32,458 bases of DNA from Microgenomates group bacterium Gr01-1014_5 (lineage in GTDB: Bacteria; Patescibacteriota; Microgenomatia; UBA8517; UBA10165): assembly GCA_007376395.1 (NCBI GenBank), contig VMGE01000002.1, positions 143,118-175,575 of the forward strand, in the 5' to 3' direction. The number at the start of each line of letters is the position of its first letter. Positions within the stretch are counted from its first letter, which is position 1. The position numbers were made by a program, and so were the translations under genes. The notes under the pieces were generated by a model. It saw only the letters and a program-made list of their open reading frames with translations. It did no database searches and was not told where the DNA came from. This document shows positions 10,076 through 27,892 of this stretch, piece by piece.

Positions 10076-10402
10076 ATGCTCAAACCTAGACAGAAAATTA
10101 TTAGAAAAAATTTCGTTGCTACTTTTTTACTCACCTTTCTTCTCTGGACAATTTGGGCAATTTTATTCTTTTTTACCCCTCCGGAATATTTCCTGACGCC
10201 ATTAGTTTTTTTGTTAATTAGTTTCCTGGCAATTCTTTTTACTTTTGCCTTACTTTTTGCTAATACAAGGCGGGGTTTATTGGTAGCACTTGGAGCTGTT
10301 GCCTTTATGGCACTGCGTTACTACGAAATCGGAAACTATTTGAATTTGTTACTTCTTGCTGGCGTCCTTTTAAGCCTTGAATATTACCTTTCAAACAATT
10401 AA
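10076..10402 (+). CDS. Small multi-TM membrane protein
   Basis: About 4 hydrophobic segments in 108 aa. Confidence 0.75.
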   Translation: MLKPRQKIIRKNFVATFLLTFLLWTIWAILFFFTPPEYFLTPLVFLLISFLAILFTFALLFANTRRGLLVALGAVAFMALRYYEIGNYLNLLLLAGVLLSLEYYLSNN

Positions 10403-10612
10403 GTCGCAAAAAGAGTCGCGGTTTCTTACTGGCTCGATAAAAAACGTAGCTATGAAAATATTCACGAAAACCTGAAAGTTTCCAGCGCCACAATCGCCGT
10501 AATTCAAAATTCAATGAAAGAGCCTGGCGTTAGGCTCGCGCTTCAAAAGATTAAAGCAGAAGAATGGGCCAACGTCTGGACCCAAAAAATCCGCAAATTT
10601 GTCAAAGTATAG
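10403..10612 (+). pseudogene. C-terminal half of TrpR-like (YerC/YecD) HTH regulator, no start codon
   Basis: VAKRVAVSYWLDKKRSYENIHENLKVSSATIAVIQ...* resembles the TrpR/YerC HTH; begins directly after the upstream TAA. Confidence 0.65.
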
Positions 10613-10628
10613 CCACGAGGAGTATACT
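10599..10628 (+). promoter_or_regulatory. Sigma70-type promoter for the metG leader
   Basis: TTGTCA-18 nt-TATACT, 9 nt before the leader ATG. Confidence 0.65.
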
Positions 10629-10637
10629 TAGCGCTAT

Positions 10638-10685
10638 ATGAATCAAGCCTCCAAAATCATGACTGCCATGATGATGATCGCCTAA
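10638..10685 (+). CDS. Met-rich leader peptide MNQASKIMTAMMMIA
   Basis: Four internal ATG codons, three consecutive, directly upstream of metG. Confidence 0.85.
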   Translation: MNQASKIMTAMMMIA

Positions 10686-10754
10686 AGCGGTCTGGAGGTT
10701 GTTGTTATCAAAATAATTAATTACACTAACCTCCAGTAGGAGGTTTTTGCTTTT
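10645..10754 (+). promoter_or_regulatory. Ribosome-mediated transcription attenuator of metG
   Basis: Seg1 AGCCTCCA (~10646-10653), seg2 CTGGAGGTT (10692-10700), seg3 AACCTCCAG (10728-10736), seg4 GGAGGTT (10739-10745); pairings are mutually exclusive. Confidence 0.82.
10728..10754 (+). terminator. Intrinsic terminator (3:4 hairpin)
   Basis: AACCTCC-AGTA-GGAGGTT followed by TTTGCTTTT. Confidence 0.85.
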
Positions 10755-10781
10755 CTACAGCCTTTTTACAAATAGCAAAGC

Positions 10782-10810
10782 ATCCTTCCGAAGCTTTAGC
10801 GAAGGAGGAT
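10782..10810. repeat. Family A palindrome in the metG 5' UTR
   Basis: ATCCTTCC-GAA-GC-TTTA-GC-GAA-GGAGGAT. Confidence 0.8.
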
Positions 10811-10822
10811 TATTCAACTATC

Positions 10823-12247
10823 ATGAACAAATACTACGTCTCAACACCAATCTACTATGTCAACGACGTGCCGCATATTGGCCATGCCTACACCACACTT
10901 GCTGCCGATGTTTTAGCGCGCTACAACAAGCAACTTGGTAAAGACGTCTTTTTTCTGACTGGTACCGACGAGCATGGTGCCAAGGTCGCTCAAGCAGCAA
11001 AAGATGCTGGGAAAGAGCCCAAAGAGTATGCCGATTCAGTTGTTTCTGGATTTCAGGATGCCTGGAAACTTCTTAATATCGACTTCGATCACTTTATAAG
11101 AACAACAGACCCTAGGCATGAGAAAATTGCTTCAGAAGTTTTACAAAAGATTTTTGACAATGGATATATCTATGAAGGTGAATACGAAGGTTTATATTGC
11201 GAGGGCTGTGAGAAGTTTTTAACAGAAGCAGACTTAGTCGATGGTAAATGCCCCCTTCATCCGAACAAAGAACCCGTCCAACAAAAAGAAAAGAATTATT
11301 TTTTTAAACTTTCAGAATTCCAAAGTTGGCTTATTGAAATCTTTGAGAAAGACGAAGTCAAAATTCTTCCGGAAAGCCGCAAAAATGAGGTTTTAGGAAA
11401 ACTTAAACTGGGATTGCAAGATATTTCTGTTTCCAGAGCCGAAGTATCTTGGGGAATTCCTGTACCTTGGGATAATTCACAAACGATTTATGTCTGGGTA
11501 GAAGCACTGCTTAATTACCACACAGCAACTAAATTCCTAGAAGGTAAGGAAAAGTTTTGGCCAGCAGACTTACACCTCGTGGGAAAAGACATTTTATGGT
11601 TCCATACAATTATCTGGTGTGCTCTACTCAAGGCCGCCGGGATTGAACTTCCAAAACAAGTCTTTGCGCATGGATTCTTCACTGTTAATGGCCAAAAGAT
11701 GTCTAAATCGTTGGGTAATGTTATCTCTCCAAAAGAATTAGTAGACAGATACGGTGTAGATGGCGCACGCTATCTCCTCCTGTCTGCTTTTCCGTTTGGC
11801 GATGATGGAGATTTCTCATTTGAAAAGCTCGATACAAAATTTAATGCAGAACTGGCAAATAATCTCGGAAATTTGGTATCTCGTGTTGCTAAATTATGCG
11901 AAACTGGCAATGTTGATATTGGCCCACAACAGCCAAATTCTCAGCACCATCTACCCTTTACAGAAAAACATATCCAGAACTTAGAATTTGATTCTGTCTT
12001 ACAACTGGCAACTGGGTATGTTGATCAAGTTAACAAACAAATAGATGAAACCAAACCTTGGGAAAATATAGAAAGCAAACACCATGTGTTAATTGAACTC
12101 GTAGACACATTACGGCAAATTGCTTATGAAATTAGACCATTCGTCCCAGAAACAGCTGAAAAAATTCAAAACCAGTTTAAAGGGCCAAAAATTAAATCGG
12201 GTGAGCCCTTGTTCCCCCGCCTGCAACGCTTTGCCCGCTCGCAGTAG
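10823..12247 (+). CDS. metG: Methionyl-tRNA synthetase (short form, no C-terminal tRNA-binding domain)
   Basis: TPIYYVN..PHIGH, TGTDEHG, CEGC/CPLH knuckle, YVW, GKDI, KMSKS. Confidence 0.97.
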   Translation: MNKYYVSTPIYYVNDVPHIGHAYTTLAADVLARYNKQLGKDVFFLTGTDEHGAKVAQAAKDAGKEPKEYADSVVSGFQDAWKLLNIDFDHFIRTTDPRHEKIASEVLQKIFDNGYIYEGEYEGLYCEGCEKFLTEADLVDGKCPLHPNKEPVQQKEKNYFFKLSEFQSWLIEIFEKDEVKILPESRKNEVLGKLKLGLQDISVSRAEVSWGIPVPWDNSQTIYVWVEALLNYHTATKFLEGKEKFWPADLHLVGKDILWFHTIIWCALLKAAGIELPKQVFAHGFFTVNGQKMSKSLGNVISPKELVDRYGVDGARYLLLSAFPFGDDGDFSFEKLDTKFNAELANNLGNLVSRVAKLCETGNVDIGPQQPNSQHHLPFTEKHIQNLEFDSVLQLATGYVDQVNKQIDETKPWENIESKHHVLIELVDTLRQIAYEIRPFVPETAEKIQNQFKGPKIKSGEPLFPRLQRFARSQ

Positions 12248-26073: not shown

Positions 26074-26159
26074 CGGAGGGTAGAGGATTCGAACCTCTGC
26101 GGGTCTTGCGACCCAACTGTTTTCGAAACAATCGCCTTAGACCACTTGGCTAACCCTCC
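26074..26159 (-). tRNA. tRNA-Ser(CGA)
   Basis: Acceptor GGAGGGT/ACCCTCC-G; anticodon arm ATTGT-TTCGAAA-ACAGT; long variable arm; GGTTCGAATCC. Confidence 0.95.
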
Positions 26160-26598
26160 CAATCCCTTTTTCTAAAACTTCTTTTTCACTCTTGAAAGAT
26201 AATTTTTTTAATGCTTCTTCTTCCAGCACCCAAACCGCTTCTTCTATTTCGTCCTCCCATTGCTTTTCTATTTTTGTGTCTTTGCCGTCCGTCGATTTCA
26301 TTAAATAAAAAACCACCACTTTAAATATTTTCTCTGTGTCCTGGACGAAAAAATACTTAATATCTTCTATCTTTTCCAATATCTGAGCACGCACTCCTGT
26401 TTCTTCAAAAATTTCCCGGATTGCTGTATCGGCTGACTTTTCGCCTCGGTCAATTTTTCCTTTTGGCAATTGCCAGCGTTTTGTCCCTTTGGGTTTAATT
26501 AACAACCACTCCCGTAAGTTGTGATTTTTGCGGAAAACTGCTCCTCCAGCGGAAAAGTGGCGAATTACTTTAATTTGGCTTTCTTTTCTTTTTGCCAT
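26137..26598 (-). CDS. NUDIX hydrolase (Ap4A hydrolase-like)
   Basis: SAGG, WQLPKG and an intact Nudix box GKIDRGEKSADTAIREIFEETGV. Confidence 0.92.
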   Translation of the reverse strand: MAKRKESQIKVIRHFSAGGAVFRKNHNLREWLLIKPKGTKRWQLPKGKIDRGEKSADTAIREIFEETGVRAQILEKIEDIKYFFVQDTEKIFKVVVFYLMKSTDGKDTKIEKQWEDEIEEAVWVLEEEALKKLSFKSEKEVLEKGIGRVSQVV

Positions 26599-27005
26599 TG
26601 ACGCAAGACATCGTTTGCCTGACCTAAAACTTTCTGTTCACGGGCAAGCTCTAATTTGCGGCGAGCGCTGCTATATTTAAGCCACGATCCGTGAAGTGTG
26701 GCTGGGAATTCAGGTTTGCCTGTTCCTTGGCGCATTAAATAAACAATAACCCGCGCGTCTTGGGATTGCCCATTGTTTTTAATAGTCACATTCATCCGCC
26801 CAGCCTCTTCAAGAACAGTAATGCGCAAACCAGCACTTTCTTTTAAGTAACGGATTGCAGCGCTAACCGAGGATTCACCTCGCCTAACGTCGCTTTTAGG
26901 AATTTCTAGGCTATTATTGTCCTTAGATTTAACCAAAAACCACTCGTTCTCCCCGCTTCTCTCCCTAAAAGCTAATGCTCCAGCAATTAATTTATCAGTG
27001 ATCAT
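26565..27005 (-). CDS. Degenerate NUDIX-fold protein
   Basis: PKSDVRRGESSVSAAIRYLKESAGL; start moved to ATG 27005 to avoid the tRNA. Confidence 0.75.
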   Translation of the reverse strand: MITDKLIAGALAFRERSGENEWFLVKSKDNNSLEIPKSDVRRGESSVSAAIRYLKESAGLRITVLEEAGRMNVTIKNNGQSQDARVIVYLMRQGTGKPEFPATLHGSWLKYSSARRKLELAREQKVLGQANDVLRQWQKEKKAKLK

Positions 27006-27024
27006 GTTTATATTTGGCAGTTTG

Positions 27025-27096
27025 TGCACCCACCCAGAATCGAACTGGGATCAGCGACTCCGCAAGCCGCTACTTTATCCGTTAAGCTATGGGTGC
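27025..27096 (-). tRNA. tRNA-Arg(GCG)
   Basis: Acceptor GCACCCA/TGGGTGC-A; anticodon arm GCGGC-TTGCGGA-GTCGC; T arm CCCAG-TTCGATT-CTGGG. Confidence 0.93.
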
Positions 27097-27147
27097 TCAC
27101 GTAGTGAGCGCACATATGGTTCTGGCGAGCCAGGTTCATATGAGTGT
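27097..27147 (-). repeat. 5' leader hairpin of tRNA-Arg
   Basis: ACACTCATATG-AAC-CTGGC-TC-GCCAG-AAC-CATATG. Confidence 0.7.
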
Positions 27148-27156
27148 TTTTAATTT

Positions 27157-27708
27157 TTAACCCTCGAGTTGAACTCTTTTTGAAAGCCAGGAGGCAGCTT
27201 TATCTAAAAAGTTTGGCGCCGCTTCTTCATAAACGAGCCTTTCCTCGAGCTCGCGTCGCAAACGTTCTTTGTCTTGGCTTTGGATAACCATTTCCAGCCT
27301 CCACGGAGCTCTTACAGCCTCAACAATTAACAGTTCTGTCCCAAACGTTCCGAAACGGTCAGAAAACCAAAATCTCGTCAATTCATCCCAACCATACTTT
27401 TTACCCGCAAAATAAAGTCCCTTGTTAGTTAACTTATGTTCGACCTCTTCAGGCGGAATTGTCGAGAGCACGTAAAGTAAAAAATATAAAGCCGCTATCA
27501 CCGCTACCGGCAATAACCCTTCCAAAAAGAACATAACTAAACCAACAAGAATAGCGATCGCTCCAACAGTCGTAAAAAACTGCCGGTCGCGCCTCTTAAA
27601 TGGTCTAACTGGGGCACGCCAGGTGAAAAGATCTTCTTCGCGAACGTTTTTCAAAGTGCTCTCGGCGTCATCTTGCAGGGTAGTATGGGCTTGTTTTTCG
27701 GGCTCCAT
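27157..27708 (-). CDS. Hypothetical 2-TM membrane protein with PH-like C-terminal domain
   Basis: W.AP.RPFK.R, two TMs, then TNKGLYF...YGWDELTRFWF. Confidence 0.75.
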   Translation of the reverse strand: MEPEKQAHTTLQDDAESTLKNVREEDLFTWRAPVRPFKRRDRQFFTTVGAIAILVGLVMFFLEGLLPVAVIAALYFLLYVLSTIPPEEVEHKLTNKGLYFAGKKYGWDELTRFWFSDRFGTFGTELLIVEAVRAPWRLEMVIQSQDKERLRRELEERLVYEEAAPNFLDKAASWLSKRVQLEG

Positions 27709-27727
27709 TGCAGGGTTTTGTGCTCTA

Positions 27728-27751
27728 AGTATACCACTTTTCTGGTATAAT
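27728..27751. promoter_or_regulatory. Divergent extended -10 promoters
   Basis: TGGTATAAT (+, 27743-27751) and TGGTATACT (-, 27736-27728). Confidence 0.7.
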
Positions 27752-27760
27752 GGCTAGGTT

Positions 27761-27797
27761 TGGTAGGTCGCACAAGCAAAGCTTGTGCTTCCTTCCA
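27761..27797 (+). repeat. 5' leader hairpin of tRNA-Ser(GCT)
   Basis: TGGTAGGTC-GCACAAGC-AAA-GCTTGTGC-TTCCTTCCA; begins as a near copy of TGGTGAGGTCGCA. Confidence 0.7.
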
Positions 27798-27803
27798 TTT
27801 CAT

Positions 27804-27891
27804 GGTGAGGTCGCATAGCTGGTCCATTGCGGGGGATTGCTAATCCCCTGAGTCGAATAGGCTCACGCGGGTTCGAATCCCGCCCTCACCG
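27804..27891 (+). tRNA. tRNA-Ser(GCT)
   Basis: GGTGAGG/CCTCACC-G; GGGGA-TTGCTAA-TCCCC; long variable arm. Confidence 0.96.
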
Positions 27892-27892
27892 C

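Follow-up and report, generated by a model that had tools for sequence, protein, structure and literature searches.

How is metG, the gene for methionine--tRNA ligase, controlled in an ultra-small groundwater bacterium, and can a short open reading frame (ORF) rich in Met codons that precedes this gene serve as its sensor? The question is raised by a stretch of DNA from Microgenomates group bacterium Gr01-1014_5 (contig VMGE01000002.1, positions 143,118 to 175,575 of the forward strand), the whole of which, 32,458 nucleotides long, is called the window here. Positions below are those of the window, and the source genome comprises 930,562 bases at 96% completeness. On the evidence of sequence comparison and model folding, metG is quite probably controlled by the region upstream of it, which would act as a ribosome-mediated leader-peptide transcription attenuator with charged elongator tRNA-Met as its signal (Table 1).

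A preliminary description of the locus, made from its sequence, had placed a promoter (TTGTCA-18-TATACT) and a nearly leaderless ORF there, and both are present as it reported, with the leader ATG 9 nt downstream of the -10 hexamer. Four of the 14 internal codons of this predicted ORF are Met codons. As promoter-like sites are not enriched locally (6 between 9000 and 13000, against 7.7 +/- 2.6 in shuffles), the promoter call is judged by the geometry that is conserved among relatives and not by the scan. The three helices of the same description were likewise recovered: helix 1:2, which begins inside the ORF, has eight pairs, one of them G-U; helix 2:3, said to be perfect, has nine Watson-Crick pairs and a possible additional G-U; and helix 3:4, AACCTCC-AGTA-GGAGGTT, has seven pairs around a 4-nt loop and was detected at 10728-10745 by the terminator scan, followed by the tail TTTGCTTTTC, 77 nt upstream of metG. 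The locus thus combines a predicted translatable short ORF, placed at the transcript's 5' end and ahead of the regulated gene, with mutually exclusive helices that share one segment (segment 3 pairs with either segment 2 or segment 4) and with a predicted GC-rich terminator hairpin and U-tract before that gene, as in classical attenuators.

Several tests addressed how readily such an arrangement arises by chance. The 201-nt leader folds with a z-score of -2.93, and two of 200 shuffles fold equally well. The motif AACCTCC-N(3-6)-GGAGGTT occurs a single time in the 930,562-base genome, at the metG leader, and three consecutive ATG triplets occur six times on both strands of the whole genome. Among the 299 terminator-like sites of the genome, three combine an upstream complement, an adjoining short ORF end and a gene within 160 nt downstream; the longest complement among these three, 10 nt, belongs to the metG site, and this own-genome screen yielded no second convincing case. 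A possible attenuator was noted on contig C14 (minus strand, about 78032-78120), where a short ORF behind TATAAT is accompanied by a terminator-arm complement and a terminator.

Table 1. Features of the metG leader and its surroundings in the window
Feature	Position	Strand	Details
Putative promoter, sigma-70-type	10599-10628	+	TTGTCA 10599-10604, 18 nt, TATACT 10623-10628; 10/12 match in promoter scan
Predicted leader ORF, nearly leaderless, 15 codons	10638-10685	+	ATG 10638, stop TAA 10683-10685
Leader Met codons	start 10638; codon 8 (10659-10661); codons 11-13 (10668-10676)	+	Sequence reading; the four internal ones are the proposed regulatory codons
Segment 1, AGCCTCCA	10646-10653	+	Codons 3-6 of leader ORF; partner: segment 2
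Segment 2, CTGGAGGTT	10692-10700	+	Begins 6 nt past stop codon; partner: segment 1 or segment 3 (antiterminator)
Segment 3, AACCTCCAG	10728-10736	+	Antiterminator 3' arm; 10728-10734 is the terminator 5' arm
Segment 4, GGAGGTT, plus U-tract	10739-10745; U-tract 10746-10755	+	Predicted intrinsic terminator with 10728-10734; tail TTTGCTTTTC
Remaining metG 5' leader	10756-10822	+	GGAGG 10804-10808, 14 nt before metG ATG
metG, methionine--tRNA ligase, 474 aa	10823-12247	+	Pfam tRNA-synt_1g 1.5e-108; NCBIfam TIGR00398 metG 467 bits, cut-off 336
TrpR/YerC-like gene, 3' remnant, last 69 codons	10403-10612	+	Pfam Trp_repressor 1.3e-05, 25.6 bits, under the 27-bit cut-off
Five tRNA genes	26074-28682
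tmRNA gene	30660-31023	-	149 bits

In the mechanism that we propose, transcription would start 2-3 nt upstream of the ATG at 10638, and translation of the short ORF, nearly leaderless in the message, would begin before RNA polymerase has left the leader. With ample Met-tRNA, the ribosome would reach the stop codon at 10683 with its leading edge over the start of segment 2; segment 3 would then be available to segment 4, and the hairpin and U-tract would end the transcript at about 10746-10755, before metG. When Met-tRNA is scarce, or when methionyl-tRNA synthetase (MetRS) is too low, the ribosome would stall at Met codon 8 or at codons 11-13, blocking segment 1 and leaving segment 2 free, and helix 2:3 would then form in place of the terminator and let the polymerase enter metG. 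Since MetRS also charges the initiator tRNA, the effect of failed initiation matters for this switch. We folded positions 10636-10757 with ViennaRNA, representing the ribosome by a 28-nt mask. With the stop codon in the A site, all seven terminator pairs and none of the nine antiterminator pairs form, whereas with Met codon 8, 11 or 13 in the A site, eight or nine of the nine antiterminator pairs and none of the seven terminator pairs form, which reproduces the switch that the preliminary description had predicted. In the model, then, stalling at the codons leads to the antiterminator and termination at the stop leads to the terminator, and this is the behaviour that attenuation needs. When progressively longer prefixes of the leader are folded, helix 1:2 forms first, by position 10705.

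If the arrangement is functional, it should recur before metG in related genomes, and an alignment of metG upstream regions had been recommended in the preliminary description. A family-level search for relatives added zero genomes, and a contig search with a MetRS alignment retrieved 80 MetRS genes scattered across Bacteria, none of a close relative, which do not enter the comparison; the order set comprises 139 species-level relatives, with metG found in 125 of them at E <= 1e-60 and 118 metG upstream regions collected. These regions were screened without regard to the Met content of any ORF. A hit had to contain a terminator whose 5' arm has a complement of 5 nt or more further upstream, together with an ORF of 5-33 codons that starts with ATG, ends next to this complement and has a -10-like hexamer ahead of its ATG. 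The full arrangement is present in 12 of the 118 regions, and two additional metG leaders, in genomes G055 and G047, were recognised by visual inspection and are also hit by the covariance model described below. In four more genomes (G026, G053, G080 and G056) the leader stands before a gene resembling S-adenosylmethionine (SAM) hydroxide adenosyltransferase, here also called SAM hydrolase-like; metG follows this gene within 1.6 kb in the first three, and in G026 a Met-rich leader, the SAM hydrolase-like gene and, 9 nt later, metG succeed each other; the contig of G056 ends before that distance is covered. This brings the genomes of the order with a Met-type leader to 18 of 139, spread over at least 14 genera, and wherever the contig reaches far enough the leaders precede metG or the SAM hydrolase-metG pair.

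The internal organization of these leaders is equally regular. The 12 automatically found metG leaders contain 1-4 internal Met codons each, and all 28 of their internal ATGs are in frame with the ORF and none is off frame. A TAnnnT -10-like hexamer ends 6-10 nt before the leader ATG in all 12, and segment 2 begins between 9 nt before and 7 nt after the end of the ORF. Beyond the order, 150 other genomes were drawn evenly from the class and searched with the covariance model (E <= 1e-4): six contain a leader match, each with 2-4 internal Met codons. Five of the six have metG within 1.6 kb downstream, and four have a complete gene with SAM_HAT_N and SAM_HAT_C domains between the leader and metG or directly after the leader; one has a small methyltransferase gene. 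The ORF with its Met codons, a stop close ahead of segment 2 and the three alternative helices is seen in 18 of the 139 order genomes and in 6 of the 150 others sampled from the class, in front of metG or the SAM hydrolase-metG pair in each case where the contig is long enough; the class sample speaks for the spread of the element and not for its specificity, as the model was built from Met-type leaders.

The constant reading frame bears on the idea that the leader is sensed without translation, its AUG triplets acting like specifiers that bind the anticodon of uncharged tRNA-Met in the manner of a T-box. T-boxes do occur in this lineage, with matches in 17 of 41 lineage genomes at E <= 0.001, two of them above the Rfam cut-off, and the source genome itself has a sub-threshold match on contig C16 (16162-16332; 50.3 bits, E 1.6e-10). 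At the metG leader, in contrast, no T-box was matched in 10350-10950 even at E <= 10; the 28 internal ATGs keep the frame of the -10-adjacent ATG, with the stop placed at segment 2; cognate codons come in runs of two to four rather than as one specifier; and Lys and Phe leaders of the same construction, treated below, obey an identical reading-frame rule. We regard an RNA-only sensor as extremely unlikely here. The Rfam search recommended in the preliminary description gave a similar picture for other leader types: at gathering score no leader family and no T-box was matched in the window, at E <= 10 no T-box or amino-acid leader (Trp, His, Leu, Thr, Phe and others) was matched in 10350-10950, and on 12 related loci tRNAs were the only matches and no leader family appeared. 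Seven weak matches in 10350-10950, to eukaryotic snoRNA, miRNA and lncRNA families and a rhizobial sRNA, lie far below their cut-offs and were dismissed as chance.

The sequence next to the metG start sets the window apart from most of its relatives. In 104 of the 114 metG genes examined from the order, a start candidate has a TAnnnT hexamer ending 5-10 nt ahead of it, against 15 of 114 when the frame of search is shifted 40 nt upstream, and leaderless metG expression is thus the norm among the genomes of the order. No -10-like hexamer adjoins the metG start codon in the window on reading 10756-10822; as 104 of the 114 relatives do have one, the window metG appears to depend on the leader promoter, which seems from the sequence to be the main source of its mRNA. 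A simpler account of the region would take the hairpin and U-tract as the terminator of the TrpR/YerC-like gene upstream, the promoter-like site and the ORF as products of chance, and the promoter of metG as unrecognised within 10756-10822. Such an account is encouraged by relatives in which a terminator after the upstream gene is followed by a clear -10 hexamer before metG (G015, G013, G114 and G138), by the lack of local enrichment of promoter-like sites and by the fact that ACCTCC-N4-GGAGG terminators end other genes too, for example rplT. In the window, however, the hairpin lies 116 nt beyond the stop codon of a remnant gene that has lost its start, and the adjoining -10 hexamer that the account would welcome is missing at metG. 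Moreover, the ORF, its in-frame Met codons, the -10 spacing and the distance from stop to segment 2 recur together in 24 genomes. We consider a plain terminator very unlikely.

Specificity for Met was assessed by starting from the terminator and ignoring the ORF. The pattern ACCTCC-N4-GGAGGTTTT was found 33 times, in 27 of the 139 order genomes, and its reversed control not once; 15 distinct matches are preceded by a -10-linked short ORF. Seven of these 15 leaders precede metG or a gene with the C-terminal domain of SAM hydroxide adenosyltransferase, and in them Met accounts for 20 of 98 internal codons; the other eight precede different genes (a HAD hydrolase gene, Asp/Glu racemase genes, M20 peptidase genes, a GNAT-domain gene, small unknown ORFs and a tRNA gene), and there Met accounts for 1 of 117. 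A second count was based on a covariance model built from 16 Met-type leaders with the structure 1:2 + 3:4, which matches 50 of the 139 order genomes at E <= 0.01. Owing to this origin, its matches are biased to the Met type. Among its 33 best matches, 24 have a -10-linked ORF; the 15 of these with metG within 1.6 kb downstream have Met at 38 of 200 internal codons, and the remaining nine at 5 of 135, four of the five lying in the G056 leader, which stands before a SAM hydrolase-like gene at the contig end. The leaders are thus enriched in codons of the amino acid to which the gene behind them is linked. In the source genome the model matches the metG leader only, so the multi-amino-acid set described below is seen in relatives and not in this genome.

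The same terminator pattern is relevant to the possibility that AACCTCC-N4-GGAGGTT is a DNA operator, bound by the TrpR/YerC-like helix-turn-helix protein and repressing metG as a roadblock, with the RNA hairpins as a by-product. In most of the 118 relatives metG does have a YerC-like gene as its immediate upstream neighbour, and the stem is more conserved than a plain terminator needs, as the 33 matches in 27 genomes with none in the control indicate. Yet the same hairpin is also present beside lysS, tRNA-Lys, racemase, peptidase and rplT genes where no YerC-like gene adjoins, and the YerC-like gene of the window is truncated. The U-tract is always 3' of the hairpin on one strand, the tetraloops of the terminator-pattern matches are mostly of the GNRA type, and the stems of four genomes (G001, G137, G208 and G258) differ from the common one, each with a segment 2 that matches its own stem. 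An operator is highly improbable. The variable, 4-nt loops also led us to reject the tetraloop as an anticodon mimic for autoregulation by MetRS.

The pairing of the attenuator segments was followed across the 33 leaders in a model-fitted alignment, the pair counts of which are biased towards the model structure. Over these leaders, 83.6% of the positions of 1:2 + 3:4 are paired and 10 of the 14 pairs show changes on both sides; none of 500 shuffles reaches any of five measures, and slid partners are 35-62% paired. The terminator helix 3:4 is paired at 96.5% and the 1:2 helix at 69.5%, with five of seven pairs changing on both sides in each. The antiterminator 2:3, which stands outside the model, is paired at 87.5%, against 38-66% with a slid partner, and shows double changes in three of eight pairs; the window contributes one, a U-A pair where most leaders have C-G. 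Together with the masked folding, the comparative evidence favours the trp/his/pheST-type logic that the preliminary description had suggested.

If the Met-rich ORF senses Met-tRNA, its output might still be something other than intrinsic termination, the position of the ribosome altering translation initiation at metG or the stability of its mRNA, for instance by unmasking the GGAGG at 10804-10808. This GGAGG is paired with segment 1 when the full leader is folded, and the four CCTCC/GGAGG-type segments together with the metG-proximal GGAGG allow many alternative pairings; in the portions of bioRxiv 10.1101/834739 drawn on here, the leaderless polycysteine ORFs of mycobacteria act by occlusion of a ribosome-binding site. 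On the other side, a U-tract directly follows the 3:4 hairpin in the window and in all 33 aligned leaders, Shine-Dalgarno-like motifs precede metG in only 5 of 114 relatives, which leaves most members without a binding site to occlude, and many relatives have a separate -10 hexamer next to the start, downstream of the hairpin. We regard a translational output as unlikely, and transcription attenuation as the better account. In the source genome, Shine-Dalgarno-like motifs are not obviously enriched before ORFs in a rough count made without proper gene calls and with up to four start candidates per ORF. A role of the GGAGG of segment 4 as the Shine-Dalgarno sequence of metG was ruled out, as its spacing to the start codon ranges from 13 to 77 nt across the family.

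A number of observations weigh against the attenuation reading or narrow it. The best ribosome-free fold (-37.8 kcal/mol) contains helix 2:3, with segment 1 paired with segment 4, and the best fold with 1:2 + 3:4 reaches -36.1 kcal/mol, 1.7 kcal/mol worse; with two conformations so nearly isoenergetic, the resting state is not clearly that of termination. Segment 2 does begin 6 nt past the stop codon, as had been pointed out, but the accompanying statement that a terminating ribosome masks it holds only in part, as the modelled ribosome covers about the first 4 of its 9 nt. Three metG leaders (G025, G122 and G047) have a single internal Met codon. The element is patchy within the order, at 18 of 139 genomes, and the genomes with the closest metG homologues (G004, G002 and G015; 64-66% identity) have no leader. 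Most leader-bearing relatives keep a -10-like hexamer directly before the metG start, downstream of the terminator, so that in those relatives the attenuator is not the sole source of metG mRNA. There are also hairpin-only variants with no ORF, in G006 (locus L017/L141), G093 (L183), G112 (L191) and G128 (L229) and at loci L050/L051. The rarity of Shine-Dalgarno-like motifs before metG (5 of 114 relatives) belongs to the same list, and none of the 20 public runs listed as holding this stretch is an RNA run. As an observation on their build, the hairpin-only variants carry a -10-like hexamer and, within about 15 nt, a CCTCC/GGAGG hairpin with a U-tract, often with a second -10-like hexamer before metG.

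From the sequences, the metG leader appears to be one member of a multi-amino-acid leader family in the class. The lysS gene of G095 (L278/L286; NCBIfam lysine--tRNA ligase, 555.9 bits, cut-off 468) follows a leader that contains three Lys codons, and in G137 (L165) the gene immediately behind a leader containing two is tRNA-Lys(UUU). In G087 (L154/L277/L285) a Phe-rich leader precedes an operon of a GNAT gene, an M20 deacylase gene, a 148-aa ORF and an AlaX-PheS fusion. Leaders of a Tyr/Trp/His/Tyr/Phe type precede racemase genes (L145, L149, L156/L279 and L162), M20 genes (L157, L163 and L164) and a HAD gene (L143), which hints that the racemase, M20 and HAD enzymes behind them serve aromatic amino-acid supply.

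Other loci share parts of this design. Lys-codon leaders on the same platform also precede two genes without a Pfam match (L271 in G110 and L280 in G041). Small Cys-rich ORFs (75-76 aa) that match no family lie behind Phe-rich leaders in G073 (L150/L274) and G032 (L272), and a further Phe-rich leader was noted at L158 (G108). At several rplT ends (L153/L276, L160/L282, L161 and L169) the stop codon is immediately followed by CGGAGGT, which resembles segment 2, and then by an ACCTCC/GGAGG terminator, with pheS or a GNAT operon downstream; judged by this layout, translation of rplT may itself set termination at these hairpins. Finally, a conserved element some 90 nt long, its core similar to GAGCCGTG-AACGAATAG...GAAAAGGCGAAA, was seen at L144 (about 1525-1637), L147, L154/L277 and L033/L034 (about 1400-1500), where it sits between the terminator (or promoter) and the start of a SAM hydrolase-like, GNAT or metG gene. 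It has no Rfam match at gathering score, the L033 copy having none at E <= 1, and may be an undescribed cis-regulatory RNA.

How does the metG leader relate to attenuators that are already known? E. coli pheST is controlled by an attenuator with the pheM leader peptide, and in Firmicutes the T-box riboswitch (RF00230) is the usual control of metS/metG. Like the T-box, the metG leader would respond to the charging state of a tRNA, has the same class of target and has a terminator/antiterminator output; unlike it, the leader would work through translation, whereas the T-box binds the tRNA directly, and no T-box is detectable at the metG leader. Elsewhere in the source genome, the match on contig C16, its sole T-box-like match, shows a recognisable T-box core and a terminator, followed by a 104-aa ORF that is presumably similar to a free-standing tRNA-binding domain. 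The trp, his, leu, thr and pheA attenuators of Proteobacteria have the same four-segment 1:2 / 2:3 / 3:4 logic with an intrinsic terminator, the regulatory codons in or just after segment 1 and the stop just before segment 2. The metG leader differs from them in controlling a synthetase and a salvage enzyme rather than a biosynthetic operon and in an unmasked fold that slightly favours the antiterminator, and it has no sequence or structure match to Trp_leader, His_leader, Leu_leader, Thr_leader or Phe_leader of Rfam.

By target, the closest relatives are the synthetase attenuators treated in PMC1262725, in the parts of that paper drawn on here: classical attenuators precede trpS and leuS in Streptomyces, as they precede pheST in gamma-proteobacteria. 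In these systems, as in the window, a synthetase gene lies behind a short ORF rich in its cognate codons and behind alternative terminator and antiterminator hairpins. The window leader departs from pheST and trpS/leuS in sensing Met, the sole codon of which is also the start codon, in having a leaderless ORF rather than one led by a Shine-Dalgarno sequence, in belonging to an ultra-small groundwater bacterium with a genome of about 0.93 Mb, and in having relatives that insert a SAM hydrolase gene between leader and metG. Leader-peptide attenuation of a synthetase-type gene outside Proteobacteria has a precedent in Bacillus, where comparative analysis of premature terminators identified histidine leader peptides before hisS paralogues (PMC2965389); these concern another amino acid and another lineage, and the sections of that paper used here do not describe them as leaderless. 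The same sections give leader peptides as then known only in Proteobacteria, Actinobacteria and, newly, Firmicutes.

The mycobacterial polycysteine ORFs, as far as the available portions of bioRxiv 10.1101/834739 go, are likewise short, leaderless and sensory and contain repeats of a single codon; through them one aminoacyl-tRNA coordinates a set of genes at several loci, termed a 'ribulon'. Those ORFs concern Cys, whereas the leaders considered here concern Met, Lys, Phe and aromatic residues, and the hairpin and U-tract of the present leaders point to transcription termination as the output. The preliminary description knew of no characterised Met-codon attenuator and of none in Candidate Phyla Radiation (CPR) bacteria, and our searches agree: no Met-codon attenuator was found in the literature searched, from which subscription journals and supplements were outside the scope, and no leader-peptide attenuation was found for Patescibacteria, CPR or Saccharibacteria in the same literature, again with subscription journals outside the scope. 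A CPR host is consistent with the 0.93-Mb genome and with the groundwater metagenomes that contain this DNA.

Directly upstream of the leader, the TrpR/YerC-like gene is truncated. Its 3' end overlaps the -35 element of the leader promoter, its frame opens directly after the TAA at 10400-10402, and its first in-frame start would leave 32 aa, against 117 aa for the intact protein of relatives. The same TAA ends a 108-aa membrane-like ORF (10076-10402) with a weak EXS-family match, and the YerC-like remnant continues in its frame. In most of the 118 regions the 117-aa YerC-like gene directly upstream of metG ends 40-60 nt before it. The metagenome loci L050 and L051 have a near-identical full-length YerC-like copy; its 3' end is almost identical to that of the window, the sequences diverge right past its stop, and the metG genes are 44-46% identical. 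At L035 a leader of the G009 type precedes a metG that is 64% identical to that of the window. From the sequences, this suggests that leader and metG have been exchanged as cassettes.

What would such leaders mean for these organisms? The element is supported, by sequence comparison and by model folding, as a Met-specific, leaderless form of classical leader-peptide attenuation, which in relatives would also control the SAM hydrolase-metG pair. Whether it extends further is an evenly balanced matter: there is about an even chance that a class-wide set of leaderless attenuators, with a shared platform and swapped codon runs (Met, Lys, Phe and Tyr-Trp-His-Tyr-Phe), forms a 'ribulon' that is the main response to amino-acid shortage. 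If this is true, the platform would consist of the segment-2 motif after the stop codon and the ACCTCC/GGAGG terminator, the hosts would presumably be auxotrophic for amino acids, and the ribosome would directly coordinate metG, lysS, pheS, a tRNA gene, a SAM hydrolase gene whose product is able to release methionine and the peptidase and racemase genes. The Met member would then be the first attenuator in which the sensed codon is identical to the initiation codon, and it could integrate the charging of initiator and elongator tRNA-Met, both of which are made by the enzyme that it controls.

Leader-peptide attenuation is a standard textbook topic. In the parts of PMC1262725 and PMC2965389 considered here, it is reported for a small number of amino acids, chiefly from Proteobacteria, Actinobacteria and some Firmicutes. 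The leader design is compact, at about 120 nt, and modular. Through the leader family, SAM hydroxide adenosyltransferase becomes connected with the salvage of methionine, and a role can be predicted for several genes of peptidases and racemases. The Met version and its Lys-, Phe- and aromatic-codon sisters suggest that groundwater bacteria with reduced genomes, few regulators and no amino-acid synthesis sense amino-acid supply through the ribosome.

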